From: an uncultured bacterium
GTDB lineage: Bacteria; Zixibacteria; MSB-5A5; CAIYYT01
Assembly: GCA_963726455.1 (NCBI GenBank)
Contig: CAVSCK010000004.1
Coordinates: 384,001 to 448,000 of the forward strand
Direction of reading: 5' to 3'
DNA: 64,000 nt
Positions 46,412 through 64,000 of the stretch are shown piece after piece. A program made the position numbers and the translations under genes. Position 1 is the first letter of the stretch, and each line of letters begins with the position of its first letter. The notes under the pieces were generated by a model. It was not told the origin of the DNA. It did not search any database and saw only the letters and a list, made by a program, of their open reading frames with translations.

Positions 46412-46939
46412 TCACTTGCAGCTCGCACAAGGCGCCGGACCACCACTGAAGATATACTGGATCACATACACGGCATCTGAGATATCAACTGCCAGATCGC
46501 AATTGGCGTCCCCGGCGGCCAGCGGATTCGGAGCGGGACCGCCGGCGAAAATGTATTGAATCAGATGAACAGCGTCTGAGATGTCGACCGAGCCGTCCCC
46601 ACTGGCGTCGCCGCACACATATGTCTTGAAGGCCTGCCAGTACCCCTGGCTGACGCCGTAGTTCGTCGAAGTCCCGCGACCGACTACCGTTTGGCCCGCA
46701 GTTCCTGTTAGAGCAAAATGTGTCGAGGATCCATGATTGCCGCCGGCCGATACGACCTGCCACTTGATTCGCTCTCCGGTCCGCGGAGAATTCGATGCGG
46801 GTGGTGCTGTTTGTCCAGTGCCGTTTATTTCATTTGACTTGGTTGCATCCGACGTCCTGACGTCAGAGCCAAAGGCGTTGGTTAGACCCAGCAAAGACAA
46901 GGTGGCAATCAACAGCGGGAAGTACTTTATTTTATTCAT
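46412..46939 (-). CDS. Small secreted protein with C-terminal dockerin (putative fibre adaptor)
   Basis: Signal peptide; WQVVSAGG..GSS....LTGTAGQ......S..Y.VSQGYWQ domain; CGDASGDG...GDANCD...PCASCK; abuts the fibre gene. Confidence 0.85.
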   Translation of the reverse strand: MNKIKYFPLLIATLSLLGLTNAFGSDVRTSDATKSNEINGTGQTAPPASNSPRTGERIKWQVVSAGGNHGSSTHFALTGTAGQTVVGRGTSTNYGVSQGYWQAFKTYVCGDASGDGSVDISDAVHLIQYIFAGGPAPNPLAAGDANCDLAVDISDAVYVIQYIFSGGPAPCASCK

Positions 46940-46948
46940 TAGGTCCAC

Positions 46949-48895
46949 CTACTTTCCTAGATCGTGTTTTAGCGCCGCCATCTCAGCCTGGAGAGCCATT
47001 ATCGCCGCCTTCAGCCGATCGTTTTCACATTTCACTGTCTCAACATTACCTTTCAACTGTTCCTTTTCTTTTTCCAGGGTTTGGATAGCGATCATCATTA
47101 TCCCCGCCATATCACCGGAGTTGATGGTTGTCGGCGTTCCGCTGGTGCCGACACCGTCCTGCCCAAAGGCTGCAAAGAAGTCCTGGGCAACCGGGCCGTA
47201 ATGGCGGAACCTCTGCGGGTCCTGGCCTTTGTAGTTCCAGCTAGTGAGATTCATGCTTTGAATCTTTCTGAGAACTTCATCACCGTCTACAGGCGCGAAG
47301 TTCTCCTTTTGATTTCTGTCCGAGGTGTAGGTATATGCGACTTGGCCTTCGATGACTGTGACGGATGAGTTGCCCAGACGAATCTTGTTGCTGGTATTGA
47401 CGACTGCTCCATTGCCGATAGCCGTGGCGTTAGTCAGCAGGCCGGAGGTAACATTCGCTGCGTATCCTAACGCCGTGTTACCGCTACCGGACGTATTGAG
47501 ATCAAGTGCATACATCCCAATGGCGGTGTTGCCTACACCGTCAGTGTTGCTCCCAAGCGCGCTTAGTCCGGTGGCCGTGTTACCGCTACCGCTGGTATTG
47601 CTCTGGAGCGCACTCAATCCGCTGGCAGAGTTGTAGCTGCCAGTCGTGTTGCTGTAGAGCGCTCCGCTGCCGTTAGCAGTATTTTGATTACCAGTGGTGT
47701 TGCGTAGGAGTGCATCGACCCCACTTGCAGTATTGTTGTTACCGGTGGTGTTACCGGAGAGGGCACCCCTTCCGCTGGCGGTATTCTTGTAGCCCGAAGT
47801 ATTGTTTAGGAGCGCGCTATCCCCGGTTGCGGTGTTGTAATTGCCCGTCGTGTTTCCAAAGAGAGAATTGGTCCCGTTAGCGGTATTGTAGCTGCCGGTA
47901 GTGTTGTGGAAAAGTGCAAGGTGACCACTAGCGGTATTAAATGTACCGGTTGTGTTGTTGTAAAGAGAACTGTCCCCGGTTGCAGTGTTGCGGTCGCCGG
48001 TAGTATTGTAGTAAAGTGCACCTCCTCCGGTGGCAGTGTTCGAACCTCCGGTAGTATTGGAGTACAGTGCCCAGGTGCCACTGGCAGTGTTGAAGTTGCC
48101 TTCGGTGTTGCTTTGGAGCGCTCGTGTCCCGTTGGCCGTGTTGGAAGAACCGGTCGAATTTAATCCTAGGGCTACAGACCCGGTTGCGGTGTTCCCAGAA
48201 CCGGTCGTGTTACTGGAAAGTGCGCTGCCTCCGATAGCTGTGTTCAGGTTGCCGGTAGTATTGGACCATAGTGCGGAGCTGCCATCGGCGGTGTTGCTGA
48301 TTCCGGAAGTGTTATTACTGAGCGTACCAGAACCCGTGCCCGTGTTGTAACTCCCGGTCATCGTCGTCACGTTGCCGGCATTCGTGCCGATGAAAGTATT
48401 TCCGGTGCCGAAATTGTGAATGAAAAGAAATCCACCTTTCAGGATGTTGCCCGACGTTACGCCGGATGTGTCTAGCTCGATGTTGCCTCCGATTGCGCCG
48501 CCAGTGGAACCGTCAAGTGTGCTGATCCGGAATGCATACGGAGCAGTCACAAGCCGAGTCCGGGGAACGATTTCGGGATCAGTACCAATCTTGATTCCGA
48601 GATAGGTAACGGAGCTTTCAAAGCTTGCATTCGTAATTGGCGTGATCGATCCCAGGTCAACCGTAAAGAGACCATTGGAGGTAGTCACAGACTGGGTTTC
48701 CGTCCAGATCGCAGTACCACCTGCGGCAACGTTGTATATTGAGAAGACCACCGAATAAGAACCGTCCGTAACGGGCGTTCCTCCGCTTGTCATGAGAGTC
48801 CCCTGGTAGTTTATCATCGTGGGCGGGGCCGCGAATACACTCGCTGCCAGCATCGCCAGTAGTAATGCCATGATGATAGGTGAATTAAAACGCAT
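46949..48895 (-). CDS. Secreted trimeric fibre/adhesin with 17-aa beta-roll repeats and a peptidase S74 intramolecular chaperone
   Basis: Signal peptide; APPTMINYQG N-domain; ~18 NTAxGxxALxxNTxG repeats; TSDRNQKEN...WNYK...HYGPVAQDF; C-terminal coiled coil. Confidence 0.88.
   Translation of the reverse strand: MRFNSPIIMALLLAMLAASVFAAPPTMINYQGTLMTSGGTPVTDGSYSVVFSIYNVAAGGTAIWTETQSVTTSNGLFTVDLGSITPITNASFESSVTYLGIKIGTDPEIVPRTRLVTAPYAFRISTLDGSTGGAIGGNIELDTSGVTSGNILKGGFLFIHNFGTGNTFIGTNAGNVTTMTGSYNTGTGSGTLSNNTSGISNTADGSSALWSNTTGNLNTAIGGSALSSNTTGSGNTATGSVALGLNSTGSSNTANGTRALQSNTEGNFNTASGTWALYSNTTGGSNTATGGGALYYNTTGDRNTATGDSSLYNNTTGTFNTASGHLALFHNTTGSYNTANGTNSLFGNTTGNYNTATGDSALLNNTSGYKNTASGRGALSGNTTGNNNTASGVDALLRNTTGNQNTANGSGALYSNTTGSYNSASGLSALQSNTSGSGNTATGLSALGSNTDGVGNTAIGMYALDLNTSGSGNTALGYAANVTSGLLTNATAIGNGAVVNTSNKIRLGNSSVTVIEGQVAYTYTSDRNQKENFAPVDGDEVLRKIQSMNLTSWNYKGQDPQRFRHYGPVAQDFFAAFGQDGVGTSGTPTTINSGDMAGIMMIAIQTLEKEKEQLKGNVETVKCENDRLKAAIMALQAEMAALKHDLGK
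47460..48400 (-). repeat. ~18 degenerate 51-bp coding repeats
   Basis: 17-aa period NTA(T/S/N/I)G..AL..NT(T/S)G.. in the translation. Confidence 0.85.
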
Positions 48896-49000
48896 AGTTG
48901 TCTCCTGGTGATTGGGTTCCTGGTTTCCTATTCTTAAATGGATGGTACTGTGATCGAAACGACCAGTACATGTACTTCTGAAATGCCCAGCGTTGTCCTC

Positions 49001-51694
49001 TTATTTGCAGGCGGCGCACGGTGCGGGTCCGCCGGAGAAAATGTAGCCGATGAGATACACCGCGTCTGAGATGTCGATCGACACGTCACAGTTGGCATCA
49101 CCTGCGAGAAGCGGAACCGGGGCTGGGCCTCCCGAGAAGATGTAGGCGATCAGGTGGACCGCGTCGGAAATGTCAATACTCCCGCCTCCGTCAGCGTCAC
49201 CGCAAACGTAGTCGCAGGCATCGCCGATGCCGTTGTGATTACTGTCGACTTGAGAGGGATTGGCGACAGTCGGGCAGTTGTCGCAGACATCGCCTATACC
49301 GTCCGCGTCTGTATCTGTTTGTAGAGGATTCGCTACTACAATGCAATTGTCACAGGCGTCACCTATGCCATCGCCATCAGAATCTGTCTGGATTGGATTC
49401 GCATTGATTGGGCAGTTGTCACACGCATCACCTACACCATCGCCGTCAGCGTCTTGCTGAGCAGCATTGGCAACACTCGGACAGTTATCTGATCCATCAA
49501 CCACTCCGTCGCAATCAAAATCGTTTTCACAGAAGGTCACTTTGGCCACGAAGGCGTCTTGAGCACCATTCCAACTGCCGTCAAAAGGAGTAGCGGTTGG
49601 GAAATCGGAAGACTGCGTATATCCTGTCACGTACGCGCTCCCCACCACGTCCACTGCGATGCCAGAGGCTCTCTCCTCATTGCTGCCCCCCAGGTAACTG
49701 CTATAGACCAGGATATTTCCGGCCGCACTCAGTTTCGTAACAAAGGCATCATAATTACCATTCCAGCTGCCGTCAAAAGGAGTAGCGGTAGGAAAATTGG
49801 AAGAACTAGTCTCTCCCGTCACGTAAGCGCTCCCCACCCCATCTACCGCGATTCCCTTGCCAGCGTCACCATTAATACCGCCAAGATAGCTGCTGTAGAC
49901 GAGGCTATTGCCGGCGGGACTCAGCTTTGTCACAAAAGCGTCATAATATCCATTCAAGCTGCCGGCAAAGGGATTAGCGGTCGGGAAATTGGGAGAAACG
50001 GTCTTTCCCGTAACGTACGCACTCCCCGTCCCGTCCACCGCGATGCCCGCGCCACCATCATCACCACTGCCACCCAGATAACTGCTGTAGACCAGGCTAT
50101 TGCCGCCCGGACTCACCTTCGTCACAAAAGCGTCATACACTCCCTCAATGGTACCGTCAAAAGGGGTGACGGTCGGGAAATCGGATGAAGAGGTCAATCC
50201 CGTAACGTACGCGCTCCCCGCACCATCCACCGCTATGCCCTCGCCCACTTCACTACTACTGCCGCCGAGATAACTGCTGTAGACCAGGCTGCTGCCAACC
50301 GGGCTAAATTTTGTTACGAAGGCGTCCTGGCCGCCATTGTAGCTGCCGTCAAAGGGAGTAACGGTTGGAAAATCGGATGAGAAGGTCTGTCCCGTCACGT
50401 AGGCGCTCCCCGTACCATCCACCGCGATGCCCCAGCCATCGTCAGTACTACTGCCACCGAGATAAGTACTGTAGACCAAGGCATTGCCACTCGGACTTAG
50501 TTTCATCACAAAGGCGTCATAATTACCAGTCAAACTACCGTCAAGAGGTGAAGCTGTAGGGAAATCGGATGAAAAAGTAATTCCCGTCACGTAAGCGCTT
50601 CCCGCCCCATCCACTGCGATGCCCTTGCCCTGATCACTACCGCTGCCACCGAAATAACTGCTGTAAACCAGATTATCGCCGCCCGGATTCATTTTCGTCA
50701 CGAAGACGTCGTAATTTCCATTCCAGCTGGCGTCAAAAGGAGTAACGGTAGGGAAATCGGCGGAAAAGGTGATTCCCGTAACGTATGCGTTACCAAGCCC
50801 ATCTACTGCGATGCCGTTGCCATAATCATAACTACTACCTCCGAGGTAGGTGCTGTAGGATAGCACCGGGTCGATCACCACCGGAAGCGATCGATCATAC
50901 TCAGCCCCGAGAGTGAAGCCAAAACTGTGGCTATCCGCGACTCGATACGCGCCCGAAATCGCCGTCGTCTTCGCTCCGTCCATCTGATAGACTACCGGCG
51001 CCTTCTCGGTAACAGTCCCCCAGGCCGTCTCGATCACCAGATCACCGTTTGCCGTTTACCGTCAGCGATTTGTCCCCTTCGTACTGAATTCTGATCTGCG
51101 AGTAATCAGCTCCCGGCGGTACGATGAAATCATACTCCATCTGGCGACCGTCACCGTAGTACTTCAAGTCAATCCCCGGATAAACCTCTTGGTAGGTAAC
51201 CGACGTGTAGTTGGAAACATCCGTTCGCCATTTCGATTGGTCATTACCGAGGAAGTAGTCGCACTTGTATTCAAGCAGATTATCACCGACAAGTTGCGGA
51301 TTCAGGGGTTGCACCCGACGAAGCTGGCTTTGATCATCATGGTCTCGATGCTGTCCCGTTCATGTTCAGGCAGTCGCATCTGGTCAGCCATCGCGTCAGT
51401 TCCCGTGCCTGCTGCATCCGCCTTCGGGATACGCCTCGTAAACTGATAGTAAGCGCCATTGGGTGTGAACCACATGGTTGCCCCACCGGCGTTGGCACGG
51501 AACAGCACGTGATCGTCCCACTGACCTTGATTCTGAGTAAATGCCAAGGGCATCTGGTGCATTTTCGCGACGATGTTTCCCTTGTCGTCAGCTTGATGAA
51601 TCGCACTTTTCTCAAGTGACTTTGCTGTGGTATTGGCCTGAATTGCCAGCAGGCTCAATCCCGTCATCAGCATCAGCGTTATCAACTTAGACAT
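49001..51694 (-). CDS. SBBP seven-bladed beta-propeller surface protein with TSP3 repeats and dockerin (frameshifts near 51050 and 51310)
   Basis: Three ORF pieces are colinear with the intact paralog 51721-54105 ([35 protein letters not shown]); seven YS(T/S)Y(L/F)GG repeats; DxDGDGxGDACDNC; PCAACK. Confidence 0.85.
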
Positions 51695-51720
51695 GTGATT
51701 TCTTCCTGTCGTGAGATGTT

Positions 51721-54105
51721 TCATTTGCAGCCTGCGCACGGTGCAGGCCCACCCGCAAAGATGTATGCGATGAGATACACGGCATCAGAGATATCTACTG
51801 CCAGATCGCAATTGGCGTCACCAGCTGCCTCTGGATTTGGAGCTGGACCTCCGCTAAAAATGTAAGCGATAAGGTAGACGACGTCGGAGATGTCGACGGC
51901 GGCATCGGCATTGGCGTCACCGCACACGTAGGAGGGTGGCAAAAATAGCTTGGTCACAAAGGCGTCTCCGCCACCCTGCATCGTCTGATAGGGATTCAAA
52001 GTCGGGAAGTTGGTGGATTGAGTGAAGCCCGCCACATAGGCATTACTACTGCCATCGACTGCGATGCCATATCCTCCATCGTCGCCCGTTCCGCCCAGAT
52101 AAGTACTGTAAATCAGGTTGTTGCCTGTTGCAGCGAACTTGGCTACAAAGACATCCCCGCCATAGTATCCTCCCAGATTCGTTGACTGATAGGGGATCAG
52201 AGTCGGGAAGTCGACAGACTGAGTAGAGCCGGTCACATAGGCATTGCCTTCACCATCGATAGCTATGCCAAATCCATAATCTTCTCCTCCCCCGCCGAGG
52301 TACGTGCTATAGATCAGGCCGTTGCCAGAACTGGAAAGCTTGGCCACGAAAGCATCACCGTAATAGCCGCCTCCGTGTATGCTCTGAAAAGGATTTGAGG
52401 TTGGGAAGTTTACCGACATTGTATAGCCCGTTATGTAGGCACTGCCGGCACCATCGACGACAATGTGTCCCTTGCCTGTTAGATTGTCATCACTGCTTCC
52501 TCCCAGGTAGGTACTGTAGGCCAGACTATTGCCGGCGCTAGAGAGCTTGGTTACAAATGCATCCGAGCCTCCTAGAAGCGTCGCTTGAAAAGGATTCAAA
52601 GTCGGGAAGTTGGATGATTGGGTATAGCCCGTCACATAGGCATTACCGTTGTGATCAACTGCAACGGAGTGTCCTGCGTCAAAAGATCCTCCTCCGAGGT
52701 ACGTGCTATAGATCAAACTGTTACCTGAACTAGAGAGTTTGGTCACAAACACATCCCAAACGTCAGTTGGACCCTGATAAAGCTGGTAGGGATTTTGAGT
52801 CGGGAAGTTGGAGGATGCGGTACTGCCCGTTACATAGGCATAGCCGCTCCCATCAATCGCGATGCCGTTTCCATAATCGCGTTTTTCTCCACCGAGATAG
52901 GTGCTGTAGATCAAGCTGTTGCCGGAATTGGAGAGCTTGGTTACAAAGACATTTTCATAGTAATAGTCGCCTGTCATTGGCTGAGTCTGATAGGGATTCT
53001 GAATTGGAAAGTCGGGAGAGATGGTCGAGCCCGTCACATAGGCATTGCCGCTGCCATCGACTGCGATGGCTAATCCCCAGTCGAAGTTGTTCCCGCCGAG
53101 ATAGGTGCTGTAGATCAGGCTGTTGCCGGAACTGGAGAGCTTGGTCACAAAGACATCAAAAGAACCATTGTTGCTGGCGTCATACGGATTTTGAGTCGGG
53201 AAGTTGGAGCTAGAAGTATAGCCGATTACATAGGGATTGCCGCCCGCGTCGATCGCGATATCGCTTGCATGATCGTCCCAAGGGCTACCACCGAGGTAAG
53301 TGCTGTAAGCCAATTGCACGGCGAGCGCACCCTGCACTTGCCGGCCAGAACCAACCGATCTGAGTCCAATCGTCCTATCTGACAACTGCGAGAAACCGGC
53401 AATGCCGGACAAGACACCGCCCGATGGAGACTTGATCGCTGCAGCCATGTCGCCCCATTTGGTGGTCACGACTGCATTGCCGTAAGCATCAATGGAGGTC
53501 TTAGCGGCACCTTTGAATTCAAGTTTGACCTGCGCCAGGTCCGCTCCGGGAGCGACTATGAACTCGTACGCCACCTCGCCGCTGCCATTACCGGCGTACT
53601 TTAGGTCGATGCCCGGGTAAAGGTTCTTAAGCATGATTGACTCATAGTTGGGCACGTCCGTTTGCCATCTTGATGGATCATTGCCAATGAAGTAGTTGCA
53701 TTTGTATCCCATCAACCCTTCGGCGACAATCTGGGGATTGTCCTTTGCACCGACGAATTTGGTCGTAATCACAACCTGTTCTACCGAGTCTCTTTCGGGC
53801 AAGAAACGAGGAAGCGGATCGATTGCTCCTGAGGAAGACGAATGTCCTGCCGTCACGTCCTTTTCAACATGTCGGGTGAATTGGTAGGTCACCCCTTCTT
53901 TAGTGAACCACATCGTCGCCCCGCCGGAACTGACGCGAAACAAGACATGGTCATCCCACTGGCCTTGATTCTGAGTAAATGCCAGTGGCAACTGAGAAAC
54001 TTTCTGAGCTATCATCGTCTGCCCCGTAGTTGTATGCGCTGCGTTTAGAATGCTCGGCGCAAGCACCAAAGCTGCAACAAGGACCAGGACGTTTGTTCTA
54101 AACAT
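51721..54105 (-). CDS. SBBP seven-bladed beta-propeller surface protein with dockerin
   Basis: ATG at 54105 with CAGGAG SD and signal peptide; seven YSTYLGG...IA.DG.GNAYVTG.T.S..FPT repeats; CGDANAD...PCAGCK. Confidence 0.9.
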   Translation of the reverse strand: MFRTNVLVLVAALVLAPSILNAAHTTTGQTMIAQKVSQLPLAFTQNQGQWDDHVLFRVSSGGATMWFTKEGVTYQFTRHVEKDVTAGHSSSSGAIDPLPRFLPERDSVEQVVITTKFVGAKDNPQIVAEGLMGYKCNYFIGNDPSRWQTDVPNYESIMLKNLYPGIDLKYAGNGSGEVAYEFIVAPGADLAQVKLEFKGAAKTSIDAYGNAVVTTKWGDMAAAIKSPSGGVLSGIAGFSQLSDRTIGLRSVGSGRQVQGALAVQLAYSTYLGGSPWDDHASDIAIDAGGNPYVIGYTSSSNFPTQNPYDASNNGSFDVFVTKLSSSGNSLIYSTYLGGNNFDWGLAIAVDGSGNAYVTGSTISPDFPIQNPYQTQPMTGDYYYENVFVTKLSNSGNSLIYSTYLGGEKRDYGNGIAIDGSGYAYVTGSTASSNFPTQNPYQLYQGPTDVWDVFVTKLSSSGNSLIYSTYLGGGSFDAGHSVAVDHNGNAYVTGYTQSSNFPTLNPFQATLLGGSDAFVTKLSSAGNSLAYSTYLGGSSDDNLTGKGHIVVDGAGSAYITGYTMSVNFPTSNPFQSIHGGGYYGDAFVAKLSSSGNGLIYSTYLGGGGEDYGFGIAIDGEGNAYVTGSTQSVDFPTLIPYQSTNLGGYYGGDVFVAKFAATGNNLIYSTYLGGTGDDGGYGIAVDGSSNAYVAGFTQSTNFPTLNPYQTMQGGGDAFVTKLFLPPSYVCGDANADAAVDISDVVYLIAYIFSGGPAPNPEAAGDANCDLAVDISDAVYLIAYIFAGGPAPCAGCK

Positions 54106-54223
54106 GTTGTTCTCCTGCTGAATATGGATGGGACGTTCTGTTGTGTTCTGAAATAGAGGGGATGACAAATCGTATTGAATCTGCTCGACATATTGAAGTG
54201 GAGGAGTTCGCTCTTCCGCAGTA

Positions 54224-54253
54224 AACGGCGATGGATAGGTGTCCATCGCCGTT
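54224..54253 (-). promoter_or_regulatory. 12-bp perfect hairpin in the leader of the surface-protein cluster
   Basis: AACGGCGATGGA-TAGGTG-TCCATCGCCGTT. Confidence 0.5.
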
Positions 54254-54582
54254 GTGGGCACGGATTGCAACGTTGTATGGAAAAGGAAAGGAGCTTCCGA
54301 AAGTGTATGTCAATTCTGATGTTCCACCGGCATCGAGGCCTGCAGCGCAGACAACAGATGGATAAAGCGAATCCCGATCGCGGGCGCGGTTTTCAGATGG
54401 CCATTCCGACGCCTCCAGCGGTAATGTCGGGAAATACAGAATGGCGACATTGCATACGGCAAGTATGTTGGTCGTCAAGATTCGTCCCCCTTCAGCGCGT
54501 CTGATAGTCAAATGGAATCAGGGCAGCCCTTGTTGAAGCTCTAAGGACTGCTGGCTTCCATATCTCATGGATAATATGTGTA

Positions 54583-54611
54583 TATATAATCAACCTAGTC
54601 CGGTTTGTCAA
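54583..54611 (-). promoter_or_regulatory. sigma70-type promoter for the minus-strand cluster
   Basis: TTGACA-17 nt-TATATA on the minus strand. Confidence 0.6.
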
Positions 54612-55130
54612 GCGGAAACTGTGAACTGGAATATCTGTAGCGGATGGTGCGCGGCCGTTTCGGCAACAGCAGGAAGGAGAAGCAGGGTGTTGTCTCCTTC
54701 CTGCGGCGCCTATTCGAGCAAAGCCCTCCTTATGCTCAAAATGCAGTTGCAGATTACAATGGCGTCCTAAGCTGGGCGCAGCTTCTGTTTCGCTTTCTTT
54801 CGTGATGTTTGGAGCGCATAACAAGTTCATGTTGAGTCTATAGTCCTATTAGGAGCTCATCCCATTTCAACCGGCGTCGTATCGCCAGACAATTGGCCAC
54901 GGGCGCGAATCCGACTGTTGCCACGATGAATGCTCGTGGACCTCGATCGAGGAGTTGGCACTTGCCGCCTCGAATTTCCCGTTCACGTCGTGTCGCCAAA
55001 ACAGTTGCTCCAAATACAGACAGAGCATCGAAAAGTTGTCGAAGAAGGTCCGGTTATTTTGCGAGGGGCAGATTTTGTTCGCGGTCTACGGAGATCCGGC
55101 ACGGCAGAAGGCACTTGTTGCTCTTTACCC

Positions 55131-55159
55131 TTGACAATTTATGAGGTAGGGGATTTATT
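55131..55159 (+). promoter_or_regulatory. sigma70-type promoter for the TPR-CHAT cluster
   Basis: TTGACA-17 nt-TTTATT. Confidence 0.5.
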
Positions 55160-55283
55160 GGTCTATGAAGTTAGGTTTTAGACACATGACTAATTGAGCG
55201 ACGCTAATTGCGTCGTGAGAAAGTCGTACCAAGTAACATGATTCAAAGTTTGAATCGGTAGTTGGGAGATAAAAGGAGGAAGC

Positions 55284-58200
55284 ATGAGATTGCCAAGGTT
55301 GTCTGCACTCGTTACTGCATTAGTGATACTAGTCGTTTATGTGCCGGCATCGGCTGAATCCTGGCAGGATCTATTGAGTCGTGCCGACTCGCTCTCCAAG
55401 GCTCAGAGTCAGGATTCGGCGATAGTCATAGGTAGGCTCGCCCTTGAGAAGACGCAGAGTCAATTCGGTGGCAACGACACGGCGACGGCGCGAGTGCTTT
55501 ACCGGCTCGGTACATACAACTACACGAAGAGATCCTTTGGGCAGGCCGATTCACTCTACCACCAAGCTCTAACAATAAGAGAGGAAATTCTCGGCAAGGA
55601 TCATCCCGACGTGGCTACAGCCGTGAGCGGTCTTGGTATCCTCTATATGACGCAAGGCCGCTACGCTGACGCCGGACCCCTTCTCAAGCGAGCTTTGGAC
55701 ATCAGGGAAAAAGCTCTCGGAGAGGACAATGCGGACGTGGGGCAGAGTCTTAACGACCTTGCCGTCCTATCCTGGTATCAGGGGAAGCTCGGCGATGCCG
55801 AGTTGCTTTTCCGGCGGGCTCTGGCAATCAGGGAGAAGGCACTGGGGCCGGAGCATCCGGATATCGGATCAACCCTCAACAACATTGGAATTCTCTGCTT
55901 TAACCAGGGTAGATATGCCGAGGCCGAGCCGCTCTTCAAGAGATCACGAGCGATTTGGGAAAAGGCGTTGGGACCGGAACACCCAAACGTAGCTCAGAGT
56001 TTCAACAACCTTGCCAGTCTCTATGGGGCGCAAGGCAAGTATGCCGAAGCGGAACCGCTCTTGCAGCGCTCGCTTGCAATCAGAGAAAAGACTTTGGGTC
56101 AGGGAAACCCTAAGGTAGCCGAGACCCTTAATAACCTCGGTTTGTTATGCTATTATGAAGGTGAATACGCTACGGCGGAAAAACATTTCCGTCGTGCGCT
56201 GGCGATCAACGAAAAAGCGCAGGGACCTGAACACCCTGACGTTGCTTACAGTCTCGCTAACCTTTCCATGCTTCAATGGTCACAGGGGAGATACGACGAG
56301 GCCACACTTGTCTCACAGCGAGCACTGGCAATCTGGGAAAAAGCCGTCGGACCTGATGACCCGCGCGTGGCAAATTGCCTCAATATGCTTGGCGTCCTTT
56401 TGGGCGAGCAACGCAAGTATCCGGAGGCCGAATCCTTAATGCAACGGGCTCTAGCCATAGAGGAGAAGACTCTGGGTCCGGAACACTATGAAGTTGGCAC
56501 AGGTCTTTATAACATCGCGAGTCTTCTGGCAAAGCAAGGCAAGTATGCCGAAGCCGAACCTCTTTATCAGCGATCGCTGAAAATAAGGGAGAAAGCTCTG
56601 GGACCGGGGCACCCCAATGTCGCCTACTGCCTTACAGAGATTGCGACTCTGGATTATTACCAGGGCAAGTACTCCGAAGCCGAGCCACTTTACCAACGGT
56701 CTCTGGCCATTTTGGAAAAGGCTCAGGGGCCGGCACACCCGGACGTGGCGGCGACTCTGGAATCTTTGTCTAAGCTCCATCGTGTCGAGGGGAAGATAGC
56801 GCTTTCATTCCAGGAGAGCGCAACGGCGCTGAAAACTCGCCTGAAGCATTTTCAGGACAACGCCTATGTCCTCACCGAAAAGGACGCCTTGAAGTACTCG
56901 AGAAGTATGCGCACTTCTGCGGATAACTTCCTTTCCACTTATCACGATTTCGTTAAGGCCGGACATTCTGAAGCAGCGCAAGCGGCTGAAATAGCAGTGA
57001 TGACAAAGGGGCAGGTATCGGACATGATATTTGAACGGCGAAAAGCACTGGTGACCGAGACAGACTCCACTACACTTGCTCTCGCTGATTCAGTCCGTAC
57101 AAATCAATTCCTACTTTCCAAGCTGTATGTTTCCGGGCCCGATGAGTATGACACAAGCGGGACTTACCGTCACAAACTCGACTCGCTTTCTGTCTTGAAT
57201 AAGCGCCTTGAATCCGATCTTGCTCGGGAGAGCAGCAGTTTCCAAAAATTCAAGTCAAACCGGGAGGTTACAGCCGCGGAATTGCTTTCGCTCTTGCCGG
57301 AGAAGTCGATGTTGGTTGAATACGTCAAATACAATTATCTCCAATTGAAGCCCGATAGTTCTACACCGCGTTATCTTGCGGTCGTTTTTGCGCCCAAAAG
57401 AGAGCCGGTCATTACCGATCTTGGGCAAGCGGCAGAGATTGAATCTTTGGTTCGCCGTTATCGCGAGCACATGCTGCTCGTATCAAGAGCCAATCGATTG
57501 CCCACGGTAGTCGATCTTGAAGACTATCGCCAAGTCAGTACGCAGCTCTACGACAAGATCTGGCGACCGATCGAGAATCAGACGCGCAGTAATCAAGAGG
57601 TATTTATTTCTCCGGATGACGCTCTGACTATGGTCTCATTTGCCGGACTACCTGATCCCTCTGGCAAGTATCTCACTGAGAGATTCACGATTCACTATCT
57701 GTCCGCCGGACGCGACCTCATTCGGCTCCAGGAAATGCCTGAAGCTTCTCGAGGTCTACTGGCGATGGCAGATCCTGACTTTGACGCACTTCCGGCGTCT
57801 CGCGTCTCCAGTTCGTTTGCACTGCAATCCGGCGACACGGCGGCAACGTCCTATGCCATGCGAAGCATTCGTTCCAGTTGCGGTACGCTAAGCGAATCTA
57901 CAGCAGACCCGCTACCGGGAACTCGTTCGGAAGTGCAGCGAATTGTCTCCCAGTGGGAAAAATCGAGCGAGGAACCGGTTGCCGTTTACTATGGCGCTCA
58001 AGCAAGCGAGGACAACTTCAAGTCGGGGGCTCCCGGCAGGCGAGTGATTCACCTGGCGACGCATGGGTATTTTCTTGAAGGCGCCTGTCAACCGGAAGTC
58101 TCGGGCGGGCGACTCGACGAGGAATCCGGCTTTGTCGGGGAGAATCCCCTTCTTATGTCGGGGTTGCTTTTTGCCGGTGCGAATCTTCACGGCGAAGGAG

Positions 58201-58574
58201 CAGACAGTGCTCGGATAGACGACGGAATACTCACGGCGTTCGAGGTTTCGGGCATGAATCTTCAAGCTACGCAACTGGTCGTGCTTTCGGCCTGCGAGAC
58301 CGGTCTGGGAGAAGTGAAGGCCGGTGAAGGTGTGTACGGACTGCGCCGTGCATTCCAGATGGCAGGAGCGCGCACGGTAATTAGCTCGCTATGGCCGGTG
58401 CCCGATCAGGCGACAGCCGACGTGATGAGTCAACTCTACGGGCTTTCGAACAAGCCGATTCCAGAGCGCCTCCGCGATTTGCAGTTGGCGCAGATCAAGA
58501 AACTACGGGCCGCGGGCTCTCCTGATCACCCGTTTTCCTGGGGCGCATTTATCGCCCTTGGAGATTGGCGCTAA
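55284..58574 (+). CDS. Secreted TPR-CHAT (caspase/HetF-family) cysteine protease 1
   Basis: AAGGAGG SD; signal peptide ASA|ES; ~11 42-aa TPRs (LGPEHPDVA..LNNL); IHLATHG (His, 58062) and VLSACETG (Cys, 58293); HPFSWGAF. Confidence 0.93.
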   Translation: MRLPRLSALVTALVILVVYVPASAESWQDLLSRADSLSKAQSQDSAIVIGRLALEKTQSQFGGNDTATARVLYRLGTYNYTKRSFGQADSLYHQALTIREEILGKDHPDVATAVSGLGILYMTQGRYADAGPLLKRALDIREKALGEDNADVGQSLNDLAVLSWYQGKLGDAELLFRRALAIREKALGPEHPDIGSTLNNIGILCFNQGRYAEAEPLFKRSRAIWEKALGPEHPNVAQSFNNLASLYGAQGKYAEAEPLLQRSLAIREKTLGQGNPKVAETLNNLGLLCYYEGEYATAEKHFRRALAINEKAQGPEHPDVAYSLANLSMLQWSQGRYDEATLVSQRALAIWEKAVGPDDPRVANCLNMLGVLLGEQRKYPEAESLMQRALAIEEKTLGPEHYEVGTGLYNIASLLAKQGKYAEAEPLYQRSLKIREKALGPGHPNVAYCLTEIATLDYYQGKYSEAEPLYQRSLAILEKAQGPAHPDVAATLESLSKLHRVEGKIALSFQESATALKTRLKHFQDNAYVLTEKDALKYSRSMRTSADNFLSTYHDFVKAGHSEAAQAAEIAVMTKGQVSDMIFERRKALVTETDSTTLALADSVRTNQFLLSKLYVSGPDEYDTSGTYRHKLDSLSVLNKRLESDLARESSSFQKFKSNREVTAAELLSLLPEKSMLVEYVKYNYLQLKPDSSTPRYLAVVFAPKREPVITDLGQAAEIESLVRRYREHMLLVSRANRLPTVVDLEDYRQVSTQLYDKIWRPIENQTRSNQEVFISPDDALTMVSFAGLPDPSGKYLTERFTIHYLSAGRDLIRLQEMPEASRGLLAMADPDFDALPASRVSSSFALQSGDTAATSYAMRSIRSSCGTLSESTADPLPGTRSEVQRIVSQWEKSSEEPVAVYYGAQASEDNFKSGAPGRRVIHLATHGYFLEGACQPEVSGGRLDEESGFVGENPLLMSGLLFAGANLHGEGADSARIDDGILTAFEVSGMNLQATQLVVLSACETGLGEVKAGEGVYGLRRAFQMAGARTVISSLWPVPDQATADVMSQLYGLSNKPIPERLRDLQLAQIKKLRAAGSPDHPFSWGAFIALGDWR

Positions 58575-58577
58575 CTA
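58353..58577 (+). repeat. 225-bp direct repeat, copy 1 (3' end of CHAT gene 1)
   Basis: Matches 61491-61715 with 6 mismatches, all synonymous third positions. Confidence 0.9.
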
Positions 58578-58667
58578 TTCGACATCTCTTATGTATTTAG
58601 AAGAGGATATTGGAGACTTCGCAGGCCAAGCTATGAATAGAAGTAGTTTAAATGAAAAGGAGGGAGC

Positions 58668-61600
58668 TTGAAATTGACAAGGCGGCTAGCGATTCTACTT
58701 GGAATCATGATACTGGGTCTGCAGATGCCCGTCTCGGCAGAAACATGGAAGGATCTCTTGGATCGTGCCGATTCTCTGGCGAGTGCTAGAAATCAGGATT
58801 CGGCGATTGTTATCGGTAGACTTGCCCTCGAAGAGACGAAAGCTGAATTCGGAGGCAACGATACAGCGACCGCCAGAGTGTTCAACCGGCTCGCAGTCTG
58901 CTATTTCTACAAGGGAGCTTATGACCAAGCCGATACCCTATATCACGGGGCCCTGGCAATTTGGGAGAGAGTACTAGGTCCGGATCATCCAAGTGTAGCG
59001 AACGGTCTGAGCAATATTTCACTGGTCTATTATTGCCAGGCGCGCTATTCCGAGGCCGAGCAATGCGACATGAGGGCGCTGGCGATTCGAGAGAAAGCTT
59101 TTGGTCCTGATCATCCGGACGTGGCGACAAGCTTGACTGCCCTTGCCAGCCTCTATGTTGAGCAAGCACGTTATGCAGACGCGGAGTTGTATTACAAGAG
59201 AGCCTTGGCAATTCGGGAAAAAGCTTTCGGTCCGGAAAATAAGGATGTGGCGGCAAGCTTGAATAATCTCGCCACAGCTTATTTTCGAGAGACACGGTTT
59301 GCCGAAGCTGAGCCGTTGTTCAGGAGAAGTCTGGCGATTTGCGAGAAGATTCTGAGTCCTGATCATCCGTATATACCGAAGTTGTTGAGCAACCTCGCCG
59401 GTATTTATAATGAATTGAGGCGGTATGCCGAAGCTGAGCAGGCGTTCAAGAAGGTGTTGGCGATTCAGGAAAGAGCCGTTGGTCCGGATCATCCGGATGT
59501 GGCAACTAGTTTGTTTAACCTCGCTAATGTGTATACCCGGCAGGAACGTGACGCCGACGCCATACCACTGTACAAACGAGCGCTGGAGATTCGGGAAAAG
59601 GCTCTCGGTCCGGATCACCCAGATGTGGCGACAACCTTAAGCTGTCTGGCTATGGCTGATTATTACCTGGCACGCTATTCTGACGCAGAGCCGTTACTCA
59701 AAAGGGCGCTGCAGATTCGGGAAAACACTCTCGGGCCGAATCATCCCGACGTGGCTTTGAGTCTGAATGATCTCGCCATGCTTTACACTTACCAAGGGCG
59801 TTACGCAGACGCTGAGTCACTGTATCAGAGAGCGCTGGGGATTGAGGAAAAGGCCTCTGGTCCGGATAATCGAGATGTGGCATACTTTCGTGAATCCTAC
59901 TCCACCCATTATCGCGTCACGGGACAATTGGGACCGGGAATTGCGGAGGCGGCGAAAGCATTCAATATTCGCCTGAAGAACTTCCGTGACAACGCGTATA
60001 TTCTTTCCGAAATGGATGCTCTGCCATACTCCACGGAAATAAGGAATGATTGCGGCAGCTACCTTTCGTGCCTCTTGGATAATGGAATGTCAGCACCGGA
60101 GTATCTTGGACAGGCAGGAAATATCGTTCTCGAGTCCAAGGGAATAGTCTCTGAAGGCATTATGCAGCGACAACAGGCCCTGGTGACAGAAAAGGATTCA
60201 ACCACTCTGGCGTTGGCAGAGTCATTGCGAAGCGCTCGGCTGCAAATCTCTCAACTGTACAGTGAGGGCCCTGGGGACGATACCACCGGCTTATACAGAA
60301 GTGAAGTTGATTCCCTGGCTCGAATTGCCAACGACCTTGAAGCAGAGCTATCTCGTCATAGTGCCAGTTTCCAGCGCCGTCAGGATGTGAACAACATATC
60401 GGTTGCTCGTATCGATTCCGTTCTTCCGTCTAGTACGTCACTCGTTGAGTATCTGACATGGGATTATCACCAGTTAAGGCCCGATTCCTTAATACCGCGC
60501 TATCTGGCATTGGTTATTGACAAGGGTAAGGGTCCGAAGATCATCAACCTGGGTGACGCCTCGGAGATTGAGCCACTGGTAGGTCGTTACTTGAAGCACA
60601 TGCAAGGGATTGCCTCAGGAGGCCGGCAGCCGAATGCCGCTGATATGTTGGAGTATCGGTCCCTCAGTCAGTCCATTTACGAAAAAGTCTGGAAGCCCTT
60701 GGAGAATCACCTCCGAAAGGGACAGAGAGTCTTTGTAGCACTTGACGGTTCCCTGAACTTAGTATCGATCGCTGGACTCATGGACGAGAAGGGAACCTAC
60801 GTGACGGAGAAGTATATTCTTCATCATCTTTCCTCCGGTCGTGACCTGATCCGGTTGAAGGATCAGGGCGTTGAAGGACATGGTCTACTCGCGATTGGGG
60901 ATCCGGACTTTGACGCGTCCATTGACGCTAGGATGAACAAGACGAGCGAACCTCTGCTGGCAGCGGCACTTACAAGCGATACGGAATATCAAACCCGCAA
61001 CGTGCGGTCAGGGTGCGGTTCATTGTCAGACTTGAAGGTTGAGAGTTTGCCGTTTACTCGCAATGAGGTTCAGGAGGTAGGTCTTCTATGGCAGGGCAAA
61101 GGGAAAGATTCGGTTCAACTCTTTGTGGGCGCCCAGGCAACAGAAGATGCTTTCAAGACGCAAGCTCCGGGTAAGCGGGTGATTCATCTGGCGACTCACG
61201 GCTATTATCTGACCGGTCAGTGTGCTTCTCCGCTAGAGGCAAGACGCGGCTTAGGTTCCGACCAGGAATTTGTGGGTGAGAATCCATTGCTGCAATCCGG
61301 GCTTTTACTGGCGGGTTCGAATCTGCACGGGGCTGGCTGCGATAGTGCTCACTGTGAGGATGGTATTTTGTCCGCCTCCGAGGTTGCGGGTATGGATTTG
61401 AGCGGAACTGACCTGGTAGTGCTTTCAGCCTGTGAGACGGGTTTGGGAGAGGTGAAGTCAGGGGAGGGAGTTTATGGTTTGAGACGAGCCTTCCAGATGG
61501 CAGGAGCGCGCACGGTAATCAGCTCGCTATGGCCGGTGCCTGATCAAGCAACGGCCGACGTGATGAGTCAACTCTACGGGCTTTCGAACAAGCCGATTCC

Positions 61601-61712
61601 AGAGCGCCTCCGCGATTTGCAGTTGGCGCAGATCAAGAAACTACGGGCCGCGGGCTCTCCTGATCACCCGTTTTCCTGGGGCGCATTTATCGCTCTTGGA
61701 GATTGGCGCTAA
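58668..61712 (+). CDS. Secreted TPR-CHAT (caspase/HetF-family) cysteine protease 2
   Basis: TTG start with AAGGAGG SD; signal peptide VSA|ET; ~9 TPRs; IHLATHG (61197) and VLSACETG (61431). Confidence 0.93.
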   Translation: MKLTRRLAILLGIMILGLQMPVSAETWKDLLDRADSLASARNQDSAIVIGRLALEETKAEFGGNDTATARVFNRLAVCYFYKGAYDQADTLYHGALAIWERVLGPDHPSVANGLSNISLVYYCQARYSEAEQCDMRALAIREKAFGPDHPDVATSLTALASLYVEQARYADAELYYKRALAIREKAFGPENKDVAASLNNLATAYFRETRFAEAEPLFRRSLAICEKILSPDHPYIPKLLSNLAGIYNELRRYAEAEQAFKKVLAIQERAVGPDHPDVATSLFNLANVYTRQERDADAIPLYKRALEIREKALGPDHPDVATTLSCLAMADYYLARYSDAEPLLKRALQIRENTLGPNHPDVALSLNDLAMLYTYQGRYADAESLYQRALGIEEKASGPDNRDVAYFRESYSTHYRVTGQLGPGIAEAAKAFNIRLKNFRDNAYILSEMDALPYSTEIRNDCGSYLSCLLDNGMSAPEYLGQAGNIVLESKGIVSEGIMQRQQALVTEKDSTTLALAESLRSARLQISQLYSEGPGDDTTGLYRSEVDSLARIANDLEAELSRHSASFQRRQDVNNISVARIDSVLPSSTSLVEYLTWDYHQLRPDSLIPRYLALVIDKGKGPKIINLGDASEIEPLVGRYLKHMQGIASGGRQPNAADMLEYRSLSQSIYEKVWKPLENHLRKGQRVFVALDGSLNLVSIAGLMDEKGTYVTEKYILHHLSSGRDLIRLKDQGVEGHGLLAIGDPDFDASIDARMNKTSEPLLAAALTSDTEYQTRNVRSGCGSLSDLKVESLPFTRNEVQEVGLLWQGKGKDSVQLFVGAQATEDAFKTQAPGKRVIHLATHGYYLTGQCASPLEARRGLGSDQEFVGENPLLQSGLLLAGSNLHGAGCDSAHCEDGILSASEVAGMDLSGTDLVVLSACETGLGEVKSGEGVYGLRRAFQMAGARTVISSLWPVPDQATADVMSQLYGLSNKPIPERLRDLQLAQIKKLRAAGSPDHPFSWGAFIALGDWR

Positions 61713-61715
61713 CTA
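61491..61715 (+). repeat. 225-bp direct repeat, copy 2 (3' end of CHAT gene 2)
   Basis: Near-identical to 58353-58577. Confidence 0.9.
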
Positions 61716-61761
61716 AACGCCCTTTCGCTTGTACTTGGTTGAGGGGCAGATGGAGGAATCG

Positions 61762-62736
61762 ATGAAAAGTAGATACTACTCGAAGAACAATCGTACGAGT
61801 CGGAGCATCGCTTTGGTAGCATTGATGATCTTTGTTTCACTGGGGTCAGCAATTGCCCTGGGTGCAAACGAAGCCGCGGTCGCAAAGATAGTTGATTGCC
61901 AGATGCCGGTTTCGATCCACGGCCCGAAGTCATCTTCCGCAGTTATCGGCGCAGAACTTCACGGCAATGATACGGTCATGGTAGCTCAAAATGGTTCTGC
62001 CACGCTAGTGTTTGTTGACGGTGTGCTGCAGAAGTTCGTCGGCCCCAGTGTGATCATCATGTCATCAAAAGATAAGTCGGAACAGGGACTGCTGGGGAAG
62101 TTGGCAACTGGACTCGCGGAATTGTTCTTCCCAAGTGGCAGTGAAACCGAACGCGCGCGCCTTGCGGTCCGGGGTATAAATACTTCGGAAAAGCCGTCGC
62201 TGACGGTTCCGCTCCTCATGTTTCCGCCTTCGGGGGGCTTTCTGATGACTGCTCCCGATCATCTGGAGTGGCTGCCCATAGACAATGCGACTTTGTATAC
62301 GGTTTCTCTCTATGATCAGAATCGTCTCATATTCACGACACGAACGCACGATGCGATACTATCTCTTCCGGGAGACTCCCTTCCGTTAGAGGCCGGCCAG
62401 TCTTATTATTGGACTGTTCAGACAGACATCGGAAACGGTTCTTTGCGATCCGAGCAGTCAGCATTCGGAATGATCGACACTTTGAGTCACGCTACTGTGA
62501 TGAATGCTCTCAAAGAGATCAATAGTTCCGCTTTTGATTCACGATTGGCAACGGTGTTGCGGATCAACCTGTATCAAAGTCATGGCCTATTGGTCGATGA
62601 GAATCGGGAAGCCGACGATTTGCTCAGGCAGTATCCTCATGATTACACGGGATTGTTGGTGAAGGCGCAACTCTGCGAGGCGATGAACATGTATCGCGAT
62701 GCCGCATCCTATTATAGACAAGCGCTCGCGCGTTGA
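61762..62736 (+). CDS. Secreted protein: FecR-like beta domain, Ig/DUF928-like domain and C-terminal TPR-like helices
   Basis: GGAGG SD, signal peptide; GAELHGNDTVMVAQNGSATLVFVDG; AVRG; LEWLP....LYTVSLYD...LPLEAGQSYYWTV. Confidence 0.65.
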   Translation: MKSRYYSKNNRTSRSIALVALMIFVSLGSAIALGANEAAVAKIVDCQMPVSIHGPKSSSAVIGAELHGNDTVMVAQNGSATLVFVDGVLQKFVGPSVIIMSSKDKSEQGLLGKLATGLAELFFPSGSETERARLAVRGINTSEKPSLTVPLLMFPPSGGFLMTAPDHLEWLPIDNATLYTVSLYDQNRLIFTTRTHDAILSLPGDSLPLEAGQSYYWTVQTDIGNGSLRSEQSAFGMIDTLSHATVMNALKEINSSAFDSRLATVLRINLYQSHGLLVDENREADDLLRQYPHDYTGLLVKAQLCEAMNMYRDAASYYRQALAR

Positions 62737-62742
62737 CGCCCG

Positions 62743-64000
62743 GTGACGAATCTGGCACACTTATATCGAAGACTATCCCGGTCGTTCCGTGCTGTCTTCG
62801 CGGTCATCGTGGGACTGCTTGTCCTGTCGCTGACAGCGCATTTTGGCTGGTTCGACCACCTGGAACAAAGACTATACGACATTGGCCTCAATCTTAAAAA
62901 CGCTCCGGTCTCCGGGTCCCAATGCGTGATCATTGCCATAGACAATGCCACTCTCGATAAGTGGTCGGGCCCTCGATTTCCCATCTCGTTGCACCTTGGT
63001 GAACTGACCCGCCTGGTGAAAGCACTCGATTCGGCCGGCGCGAGGGTAATCTGCATTGACCTCCTCTTCGATCGTCTAGAGGCCGCCAAACGCGAAGACA
63101 TCAGTTGCTTCGCCGACGCCTGCAAGAAGGCAGGCAACGTACTGCTGGCTTCTGCAGTTGAAGACACCAGCGACATTCTGGGCGATCGTTACAACTCGTC
63201 GCAACTAAACCTGCCGTGGCCGACTTTGAATGAAGCAGTCGCCGGAGTCGGGCTCGCAGATGTTCCCATTGATTTTGACGGAATGATTCGGCGTGTGGAG
63301 AAAACGGCACGTTTTCAGGGCGCGCTCCTGCCTTCACTTTCTGCGCAGGCAGTGGCACTATACAATCAGGACAATCTCGAAATTGCCTCTCAAGACAACA
63401 CGTACCTAATTGACTATTCCTGGCTCTCCAGGATAAAGACAATCTCAGCCCAGGATGTCATTGATGTGAGTGGTGTCGCCGAATTTGCGCGCGGCAAAAT
63501 CGCAGTGATCGGAGTGACTGACGACGGTGCCAATGATAGTTATCACGTTCCCATAAACTCAGCAAGTGGCAAACCACTTATATTACCGGGTGTAGTGGTT
63601 CACGCTGCCGCAGTGCAAAGTCTGCTTTCTGACAGGAAGATAAAACTCTCGTCTGCTCTAGTTAATCTGCCGCTCTTTGTTTTGGTAGCCGTCCCATTCG
63701 TATTCCTTTCCCAGGCGCGAAGGACGTGGATTACAGTTGCCTGCTACATGGCCGCTGCGCCATTACTCATAGTAGTTTCCGTTTTGGCTGTTCCCTTAAT
63801 GTATCTCATGCTACCCGTCATCAAGTCGCTTTTCAGTCTGGCGGTGGTTATTGGAGTTCAGATGGTTCTTGGGATTACACTCTTGCGTAGAGAAACGATA
63901 TCTCAACTTGCCGTGATCACGGAATTCAGTGAGGATATGCAATCGGCCAAAGTCATTCAACAGCATTTGCAGCCCCGAAATGTGCCTGTGCATCCAGGTC
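62743..64000 (+). CDS. CHASE2-domain membrane sensor with the start of a SpoIIE/PP2C (RsbU-like) phosphatase; truncated by the window end
   Basis: Absent from the ORF track (no stop in window). From GTG 62743: TM, LEQRLYD, VIIAIDNATL, AGARVICIDLLFD, DFDGMIRR, PGVVVHA, ~3 TM helices, then EDMQSAKVIQQHLQP. Confidence 0.85.
   Translation, partial: MTNLAHLYRRLSRSFRAVFAVIVGLLVLSLTAHFGWFDHLEQRLYDIGLNLKNAPVSGSQCVIIAIDNATLDKWSGPRFPISLHLGELTRLVKALDSAGARVICIDLLFDRLEAAKREDISCFADACKKAGNVLLASAVEDTSDILGDRYNSSQLNLPWPTLNEAVAGVGLADVPIDFDGMIRRVEKTARFQGALLPSLSAQAVALYNQDNLEIASQDNTYLIDYSWLSRIKTISAQDVIDVSGVAEFARGKIAVIGVTDDGANDSYHVPINSASGKPLILPGVVVHAAAVQSLLSDRKIKLSSALVNLPLFVLVAVPFVFLSQARRTWITVACYMAAAPLLIVVSVLAVPLMYLMLPVIKSLFSLAVVIGVQMVLGITLLRRETISQLAVITEFSEDMQSAKVIQQHLQPRNVPVHPG

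Follow-up and report, generated by a model that had tools for sequence, protein, structure and literature searches.

Do caspase-like proteases act in the bacterial envelope, upstream of CHASE2 sensors? The question is raised by four genes found in a row at the end of a 64,000-nucleotide stretch of DNA (hereafter the window) from an uncultured bacterium of the phylum Zixibacteria (contig CAVSCK010000004.1). The window spans G000:C4:384001-448000, where G000 denotes the source genome, 3.64 Mb long and assembled in 5 contigs; plain positions given below are those of the window. The genes encode two TPR-CHAT proteases, CHAT1 (1096 amino acids, 55284..58574) and CHAT2 (1014 amino acids, 58668..61712), a 324-amino acid protein denominated partner (61762..62736), and a 635-amino acid receptor composed of CHASE2, transmembrane and SpoIIE (PP2C) regions (62743..64000, continuing outside the window, G000:C4:446743-448650). 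Export is predicted for the first three products. All genes lie on the + strand, separated by 93, 49 and 6 nucleotides, and are thus intact, co-oriented and closely spaced, as the initial annotation of the window had described them. The reading favoured here, to which we assign a probability of about one half, is that an arginine-directed periplasmic protease would cut the partner at R137, and that CHASE2 would read the state of the partner.

CHAT1 and CHAT2 feature TPR_10/TPR_12 arrays followed by a CHAT domain (Pfam E 1.9e-64 and 4.6e-63). The domain scores of 218 and 214 bits, against a Pfam cut-off of 24, assign both to the TPR-CHAT proteins. The His/Cys dyads attributed to them are confirmed as H927/C1004 in CHAT1 and H844/C922 in CHAT2, and H844/G845 and C922 are invariant in 33/33 sequences. 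With their catalytic residues intact, the two proteins, which are about 50% identical, are predicted proteases. The CHAT2 open reading frame (ORF) starts with a TTG codon preceded by AAGGAGG; its AlphaFold model (predicted local distance difference test, pLDDT, 83.1) has its best Foldseek matches in separase, Csx29 and DdvA. Neither protein belongs with DdvA-type anti-sigma factors, as both lack an anti-sigma domain and have only a short N-terminal hydrophobic segment. In the hydropathy profiles this is a single stretch closing in an A-x-A-like motif; no further 19-residue window exceeds 1.5 in either protein, and the full-length relatives inspected also carry one N-terminal hydrophobic segment. 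The cleavable signal peptides and the lack of other membrane segments claimed earlier agree with these profiles; cleavage and export are predictions made from the N-termini. In 38 sequences, whose kinship makes them non-independent, a cysteine after an arginine located in a disordered loop and a cysteine after the catalytic histidine occur together in 29, are both absent in 8 and are discordant in 1. The pair corresponds in CHAT2 to C783, which co-varies with C852, and the two residues probably form a disulfide. Such a pair would fit an oxidising compartment, and therefore supports CHAT export.

The third gene, whose ORF opens at 61729 and is counted here from the ATG at 61762, had been regarded as FecR/DUF928-like. 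This label does not hold. No match above cut-off was found for the partner in Pfam and NCBIfam. FecR (PF04773) does not match the protein itself and is found in 2/75 relatives (best E 0.0016), and DUF928 (PF06051) scores 14.6 bits against a cut-off of 26 (E 0.029), with 9/75 relatives at E<=0.01. The partner model (pLDDT 88.4) consists of a beta domain (residues 41-113), a low-confidence linker in which residues 132-135 fall below 50, an Ig/Fn3-like domain and a pair of TPR helices. Its best Foldseek match is MtxA (4Z29, E 1.2e-6, TM score 0.60 by target); in the VIA comparison with MtxA (Z 11.6, root-mean-square deviation 3.9, 161 aligned residues) the result is tied with those of generic TPR entries. 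As the C-terminal half folds as an Ig-like domain plus TPR, and the gene is located directly upstream of a CHASE2 receptor, MtxA-like is, on the modelled structure, a better label than FecR or DUF928. MtxA models of Pfam are not present among the 25 families listed, out of 32 matched by the 75 partner members, and the Atlas cluster matching the partner at 0.96 has MtxA_C in 21% of its members. No Atlas match at or above 0.9 was found for the N-terminal beta domain, and no sequence match for the partner in PDB. Used as single query among 60 relatives, the partner retrieved no full-length match and one weak partial match. No fused longer form was detected at E<=1e-15, which is weak evidence, and no relatives were confirmed in viral contigs by a DNA-pattern scan. 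Beyond the phylum, the range of the partner is known from protein matches devoid of gene context. The N-terminal hydrophobic segment of the partner, from which export is predicted, may be a cleaved signal or a retained anchor.

The fourth gene runs 650 nucleotides beyond the window. It encodes a CHASE2 domain (E 6.8e-37), further membrane segments and, as the initial annotation had anticipated from the motif at the window edge, a complete SpoIIE domain (PF07228, E 6.7e-42). The metal-binding aspartates (D434, D453, D573 and the region of D625) are invariant in 13/13 orthologues, which assigns the receptor to the SpoIIE/RsbU PP2C phosphatases. Near-invariant arginines of its periplasmic region are confined to the CHASE2 fold (R183). 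STAS or anti-sigma kinase genes, which might have been expected downstream, are not found beside the locus. Elsewhere in the source genome a single-sequence search detected 8 SpoIIE-domain and 4 STAS-like ORFs, none of them adjacent.

The conservation of gene order was surveyed in 285 genomes of the phylum with a partner profile derived from 75 homologues. Full-length partners are hosted by 16 genomes, including the source genome; 35 other genomes have matches to partial domains only, and were left uncounted. In the 16 full-length loci identified in the 15 other genomes, some from other families of the phylum, a CHASE2 gene is always found next to the partner. The corresponding outputs are SpoIIE in 14 loci and a histidine kinase in one, the remaining receptor being cut by a contig end. 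Since the partner precedes a CHASE2-histidine kinase in G102 (L058:7819-10690), the output domain can be swapped. A TPR-CHAT gene lies directly upstream of the partner in 9 of the 14 loci with visible upstream DNA, and about 6 kb off in one. Because of this different linkage, 16/16 versus 9/14, partner and CHASE2 are the fixed core of the module, and CHAT is a frequent third member; the conservation of the neighbourhood applies in full to the pair, and in part to CHAT. A close CHAT (E<=1e-120) was found by eye in 14 of the 15 other partner-bearing genomes, the exception being G238, 74% complete. G102 also hosts, at L059, a half-readable further partner located after a CHAT gene and lacking CHASE2. 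CHASE2 genes are found in 274/285 genomes, mostly in single copy, and this suggests that CHASE2 may be a core signalling unit of the phylum.

The CHAT clade is found in 109/285 genomes. [quoted passage not shown] In G089 the order is ECF, anti-sigma-like, CHAT, CHAT, partner, CHASE2-SpoIIE. No match to the anti-sigma-like family of the G089 type was found in the source genome. Two membrane protein families, with matches in 24 and 80 of the 285 genomes, are tightly linked to exported TPR-CHATs. Family 2 has a zf-HC2 domain. Family 1 matches nothing in Pfam or NCBIfam; it owes the name anti-sigma-like to its position and membrane helix.

These proteins share with the partner a conserved arginine. 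Partner R137 (codon 62170..62172, context ARLAVR/G) is Arg in 26/26 close and in 73/75 wider homologues (one Lys, one Pro), in spite of a mean identity of 21%. Located in the low-confidence linker, it is a candidate P1 residue, and likely marks a cut site. In both anti-sigma(-like) families a Thr/Val-Arg-small motif is located a short way past the membrane helix; the residue following Arg is mostly S, G, A or T. The motif was checked in members outside the profiles, corresponding to 41 of 103 family-2 and 19 of 26 family-1 matches, one fragment being dropped. Arg is conserved in 41/41 members of family 2, and in 17/18 of family 1, the other member carrying Lys. A CHAT gene lies at 1.3 kb or less in 30/41 family-2 and 12/18 family-1 loci, and most of the others are located at contig ends. 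In a PrsW-linked anti-sigma family of 27 sequences sharing 23% identity, the single control family used, no Arg column exceeds 52%. CHATs in turn carry an arginine in their own disordered loop, before the catalytic core, in 36/38 sequences (by eye). The residue is R863 in CHAT1 (57870..57872, SIR/SSC) and R780 in CHAT2 (61005..61007, NVR/SGC), where the model has a disordered loop at 760-786. An arginine-directed protease would be the simplest common cause of the shared arginine. In separase the P1 Arg is anchored by D2151, equivalent to Csx29 K670 (PMC9729208), and for gingipain and MALT1 acidic anchors are described in similar elements (PMC4626109). D747, E800 and D959 are invariant in CHATs, and might be the acidic P1 anchors of these enzymes.

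An association of protease and partner was modelled for CHAT1 (residues 470-1096) and partner (residues 36-324). The complex scored 0.44, whereas none of the 3 controls rose above 0.00; at least 75% of the contacts agree among runs, and partner pLDDT is at least 78. The mark for a complex is reached by 116 of 157 solved pairs and by 2 of 215 mismatched pairs, scores at or below 0.60 including 18 of the former and both of the latter. This modelling, restricted to the pair and not placing R137, lends weak support to a CHAT1-partner association, and with it to the interaction that the initial annotation had postulated.

The sequence of events could be as follows. At rest, CHATs would probably be either held off by their own Arg loop (R863/R780), or require its cut. 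An extracytoplasmic signal binding the TPR arm would switch the CHAT protease on. Active CHAT would then cut the partner after R137, so that the Ig-TPR half comes apart from the N-terminal beta domain. CHASE2 would sense the cut or the uncut partner, with a change in the activity of the cytoplasmic PP2C domain, whose probable target is a STAS protein of a partner switch encoded outside the locus. Export, arginine specificity, cleavage, binding of partner and CHASE2, the TPR ligand and the PP2C target are all steps that we infer. The trans-envelope cascade proposed at first draws strength from the PP2C domain, the gene order, the indications of export and the candidate arginine; it is weakened by CHAT being less exclusive to the module, and often located by ECF/anti-sigma pairs.

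Several observations weigh against an arginine-directed cut read by CHASE2. CHAT is not seen near 4 of the 14 informative partner loci, and, as a single family accounts for 8 of the 9 CHAT-adjacent loci, independent cases are few. In the quick tree described below, partner-adjacent CHATs do not form one clade and require 5 changes. Three anti-sigma loci with 5 kb available at both sides keep the arginine and lack CHAT. The position equivalent to separase D2151, placed in the sequence alignment via Csx29 K670, 8 residues after the beta-5 Trp, is Ala in 29/38 CHATs and never acidic; the acidic anchor of a separase-like Arg-specific protease is therefore not found there. The residue following the partner arginine varies in family f15 (M, R, Q, K, H, V, T, E). 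The linker of MtxA is accessible to proteases in vitro, as trypsin left a fragment starting from L142 (PMC4439547), and this speaks for the cut; the trypsin site falls in the corresponding linker, at a residue which may differ from the equivalent of R137. Finally, a receptor scan of genome contigs yielded 80 loci, mostly plain SpoIIE; 4 of the 80 are CHASE2-SpoIIE fusions, from Omnitrophota and Planctomycetia, and CHAT is missing in all four. CHASE2 does not need the CHAT/partner module.

The presence of two CHAT genes has also been considered. In a quick tree the catalytic half of CHAT1 falls together with the G089 copy adjacent to the partner (support 92); that of CHAT2 falls with the copy adjacent to the anti-sigma gene (88), and also with a lone contig C3 paralogue and a copy from G207 (99). 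The catalytic halves would thus represent two old lineages. At the 3' ends, by contrast, the last 222 nucleotides (58353..58574 in CHAT1, 61491..61712 in CHAT2) are identical at 216 positions, and all 6 differences are silent, whereas DNA identity is 47-68% in blocks farther upstream. The tails of the G089 pair are 83-87% alike over 120 nucleotides, and 66-67% identical at the protein level to the copies of the source genome. The near-identical tails are probably a gene conversion tract shared by the neighbour genes. An assembly artefact is less likely, because the differences are silent; selection for matching tails is possible, and is not required.

In an extension of the favoured reading, exported TPR-CHATs would be a general plug-in 'site-1' device of diderms, wired to different outputs by an Arg bait loop. 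The loop would lead to an ECF output when hosted by a membrane anti-sigma; when hosted by an MtxA-like protein, the cut product would be the CHASE2 ligand, controlling a phosphatase, a kinase or a cyclase. Twin CHATs, whose TPR arms diverge and whose tails are homogenised, would let a single receptor be reached by two signals. Such a generalization is tentative, and we hold it doubtful.

An unlikely alternative is that CHATs are passengers at this locus. Partner and CHASE2-SpoIIE would be self-sufficient, as MtxA and its cyclase, CHATs would come from ECF modules or serve them, and R137 would have a binding or structural role, for example in CHASE2 docking. The different linkage of CHASE2 and CHAT to the partner fits this view, as do the width of the CHAT clade (109 genomes, versus 16 for the partner), the ECF/anti-sigma pairs flanking many close CHATs, the G089 order, which resembles two fused modules, and the grouping of CHAT2 with an anti-sigma-linked CHAT. 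Yet no match to the anti-sigma family in question was found in the source genome, where both CHATs are intact and lie close against the partner. Moreover, an arginine at a flexible site is common to both anti-sigma families and absent in the control family, and the CHAT1-partner model, weak as its support is, points in the same direction.

Alternatively, R137 could serve to bind rather than to be cut. The partner would be in this case a securin- or PCi-like inhibitor, signalling to CHASE2 when displaced, and cutting would be slow or incidental. Caspase-fold proteases have inhibitors of this kind, such as PCi (bioRxiv 2023.06.23.546230) and securin. An invariant P1-like Arg followed by a variable residue would suit a binding loop, and the modelled complex fits stable binding. 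Against this, the arginine of anti-sigma proteins is more simply explained by a site-1 cut of the kind suggested for DdvA (PMC11506125). Also, the linkage of the partner is closer with CHASE2 than with CHAT. A role as inhibitor is quite improbable. Last and least probable, an outward flow by a LapD/LapG-like logic, in which receptor and partner control a protease directed at secreted or surface substrates, or the protease cuts CHASE2, may draw on the clusters of large exported proteins flanking the source and family f15 loci, and on the 96 ORFs with dockerin-like tails of the source genome, but those flanking proteins differ among loci and mostly have their genes on the other strand. In the periplasmic region of the receptor, near-invariant arginines occur in the CHASE2 fold alone, and the intact catalytic residues of the cytoplasmic enzyme point to inward signalling.

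The cut of the partner favoured here has partial counterparts in known systems. MtxA (MGR_0208) is, like the partner, an exported protein of about 320 amino acids in which a beta domain and a protease-labile linker precede Ig-like and TPR domains, and its gene is followed by a CHASE2 gene (PMC4439547). The receptor is however an adenylate cyclase rather than SpoIIE, and the two proteins share 12% identity. Deletion of mtxA had no phenotype under standard conditions, and the main text of the same article gives no mechanism and does not contain the term CHAT. DdvA/DdvS of Myxococcus xanthus provides a periplasmic TPR-CHAT with a His-Cys dyad and a proposed signal-triggered cut in a linker (PMC11506125; 8ROT/8RW5). 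The notion that the characterised TPR-CHATs are intracellular is right for Csx29 and separase, and is contradicted by DdvA. In DdvA the membrane anti-sigma and the protease form a single protein, whose self-cleavage is reported as not demonstrated; the present locus encodes CHATs as proteins of their own and places the putative substrate in another exported protein, with a phosphatase as output. Like these CHATs, Csx29 (Craspase) and separase join a TPR or helical arm to a CHAT fold; both are activated allosterically, and separase cuts after Arg (PMC9729208, PMC4626109). Both are intracellular. The locus has no CRISPR or defence link, and carries Ala at the D2151 position. In Sinorhizobium meliloti the CHASE2 cyclases CyaD1, CyaD2 and CyaK respond to a plant protein through the envelope protein NsrA (PMC13001267). 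In that system the relay is an outer-membrane beta-barrel and the output is cAMP, and the text available mentions neither a protease nor an MtxA-like protein. The complete SpoIIE domain and its conserved aspartates recall the RsbU/SpoIIE partner-switching phosphatases; unlike these, the receptor has no adjacent STAS or anti-sigma kinase gene.

Combinations of CHAT or caspase domains with other modules have been reported as SAVED-CHAT/PCaspase (bioRxiv 2023.06.23.546230) and as EACC2-caspase-CHASE2 fusions associated with ECF sigma factors (PMC8195603). The words CHAT and caspase are absent from the main text of PMC7826278. In the main texts searched, no description of a CHAT, an MtxA/DUF928-like protein and CHASE2 together was found; CHAT, CHASE2 and protease are mentioned jointly only in a survey of cyanobacterial metacaspases (PMC2853523).

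The source genome hosts in total 6 CHAT and 2 CHASE2 genes. The CHAT genes outside the module are found at G000:C2:28834-33430 (exported, convergent with ECF/anti-sigma genes, the anti-sigma gene being located at C2:29443-30300), C3:517869-520913 (the lone paralogue, exported and sharing 61% identity with CHAT2), C1:91938-95892 (apparently cytoplasmic, behind an ECF pair) and C4:1884143-1887361 (exported, a distant relative). The second CHASE2 gene, which neither CHAT nor partner adjoins, encodes a CHASE2-Ser/Thr kinase. It is found at G000:C4:1413619-1417624 (L010), where genes encoding an FHA protein, a metallophosphoesterase and the kinase are in a row. One Omnitrophota fusion, L214:7122-10884, also devoid of CHAT, comes after genes for a probable beta-barrel and for an exported protein resembling FecR, in a Mla-type transporter region hosting STAS and anti-sigma-kinase-like genes.

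About 1 kb of DNA without a convincing gene (54270-55284) precedes CHAT1. G089 has there the ECF/anti-sigma-like pair, and no remnant of such a pair was detected in this interval by tblastn. No Rfam match was found in the window, and promoter and terminator scans gave signals no higher than those of shuffled sequences. CRISPR-Cas or defence genes are missing among the annotated flanking ORFs, and PADLOC returned a generic TPR model alone. On the 5' side, the minus strand hosts a cluster of secreted-protein genes with dockerin-like C-terminal tails (46412-54270); the tail motif is the one matched by 96 ORFs genome-wide. Two exported-protein genes of this strand are apparently split by frameshifts, and may be pseudogenes or reflect assembly indels. 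One is of the DUF7948/SBBP type (49001-51739); the other (43280-46092) has a paralogue at C4:802365-805043 which appears continuous. On the 3' side, RsiW-like anti-sigma and PrsW protease genes form two related clusters (G000:C4:448651-450986 and 463376-469936), the first with its own ECF sigma gene, the second with genes for a 477-amino acid protein made of short tandem repeats and a 990-amino acid probable outer-membrane protein. The convergent PrsW/anti-sigma/ECF genes located just downstream of the receptor were considered as part of the module and rejected, as their anti-sigma has no Arg column and a paralogue in the second PrsW cluster, and 28 loci of the family, examined with 1.5 kb flanks, lack CHAT.

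The module is real and intact, apparently unpublished, and a variant of protease-gated envelope signalling. Its host is uncultured, and the mechanism proposed, drawn from residue conservation, names single residues at which it could operate: R137 in the partner, C1004 and C922 in CHATs, and the loop arginines R863 and R780. In the literature texts available no direct CHASE2 ligand, no function for MtxA and no demonstrated cut by DdvA were found, and the locus links all three. If the reading is true, an extracytoplasmic caspase-like cascade would produce the ligand of its own receptor, and the locus would offer a precise handle on the switching of CHASE2 sensors, which are poorly understood.

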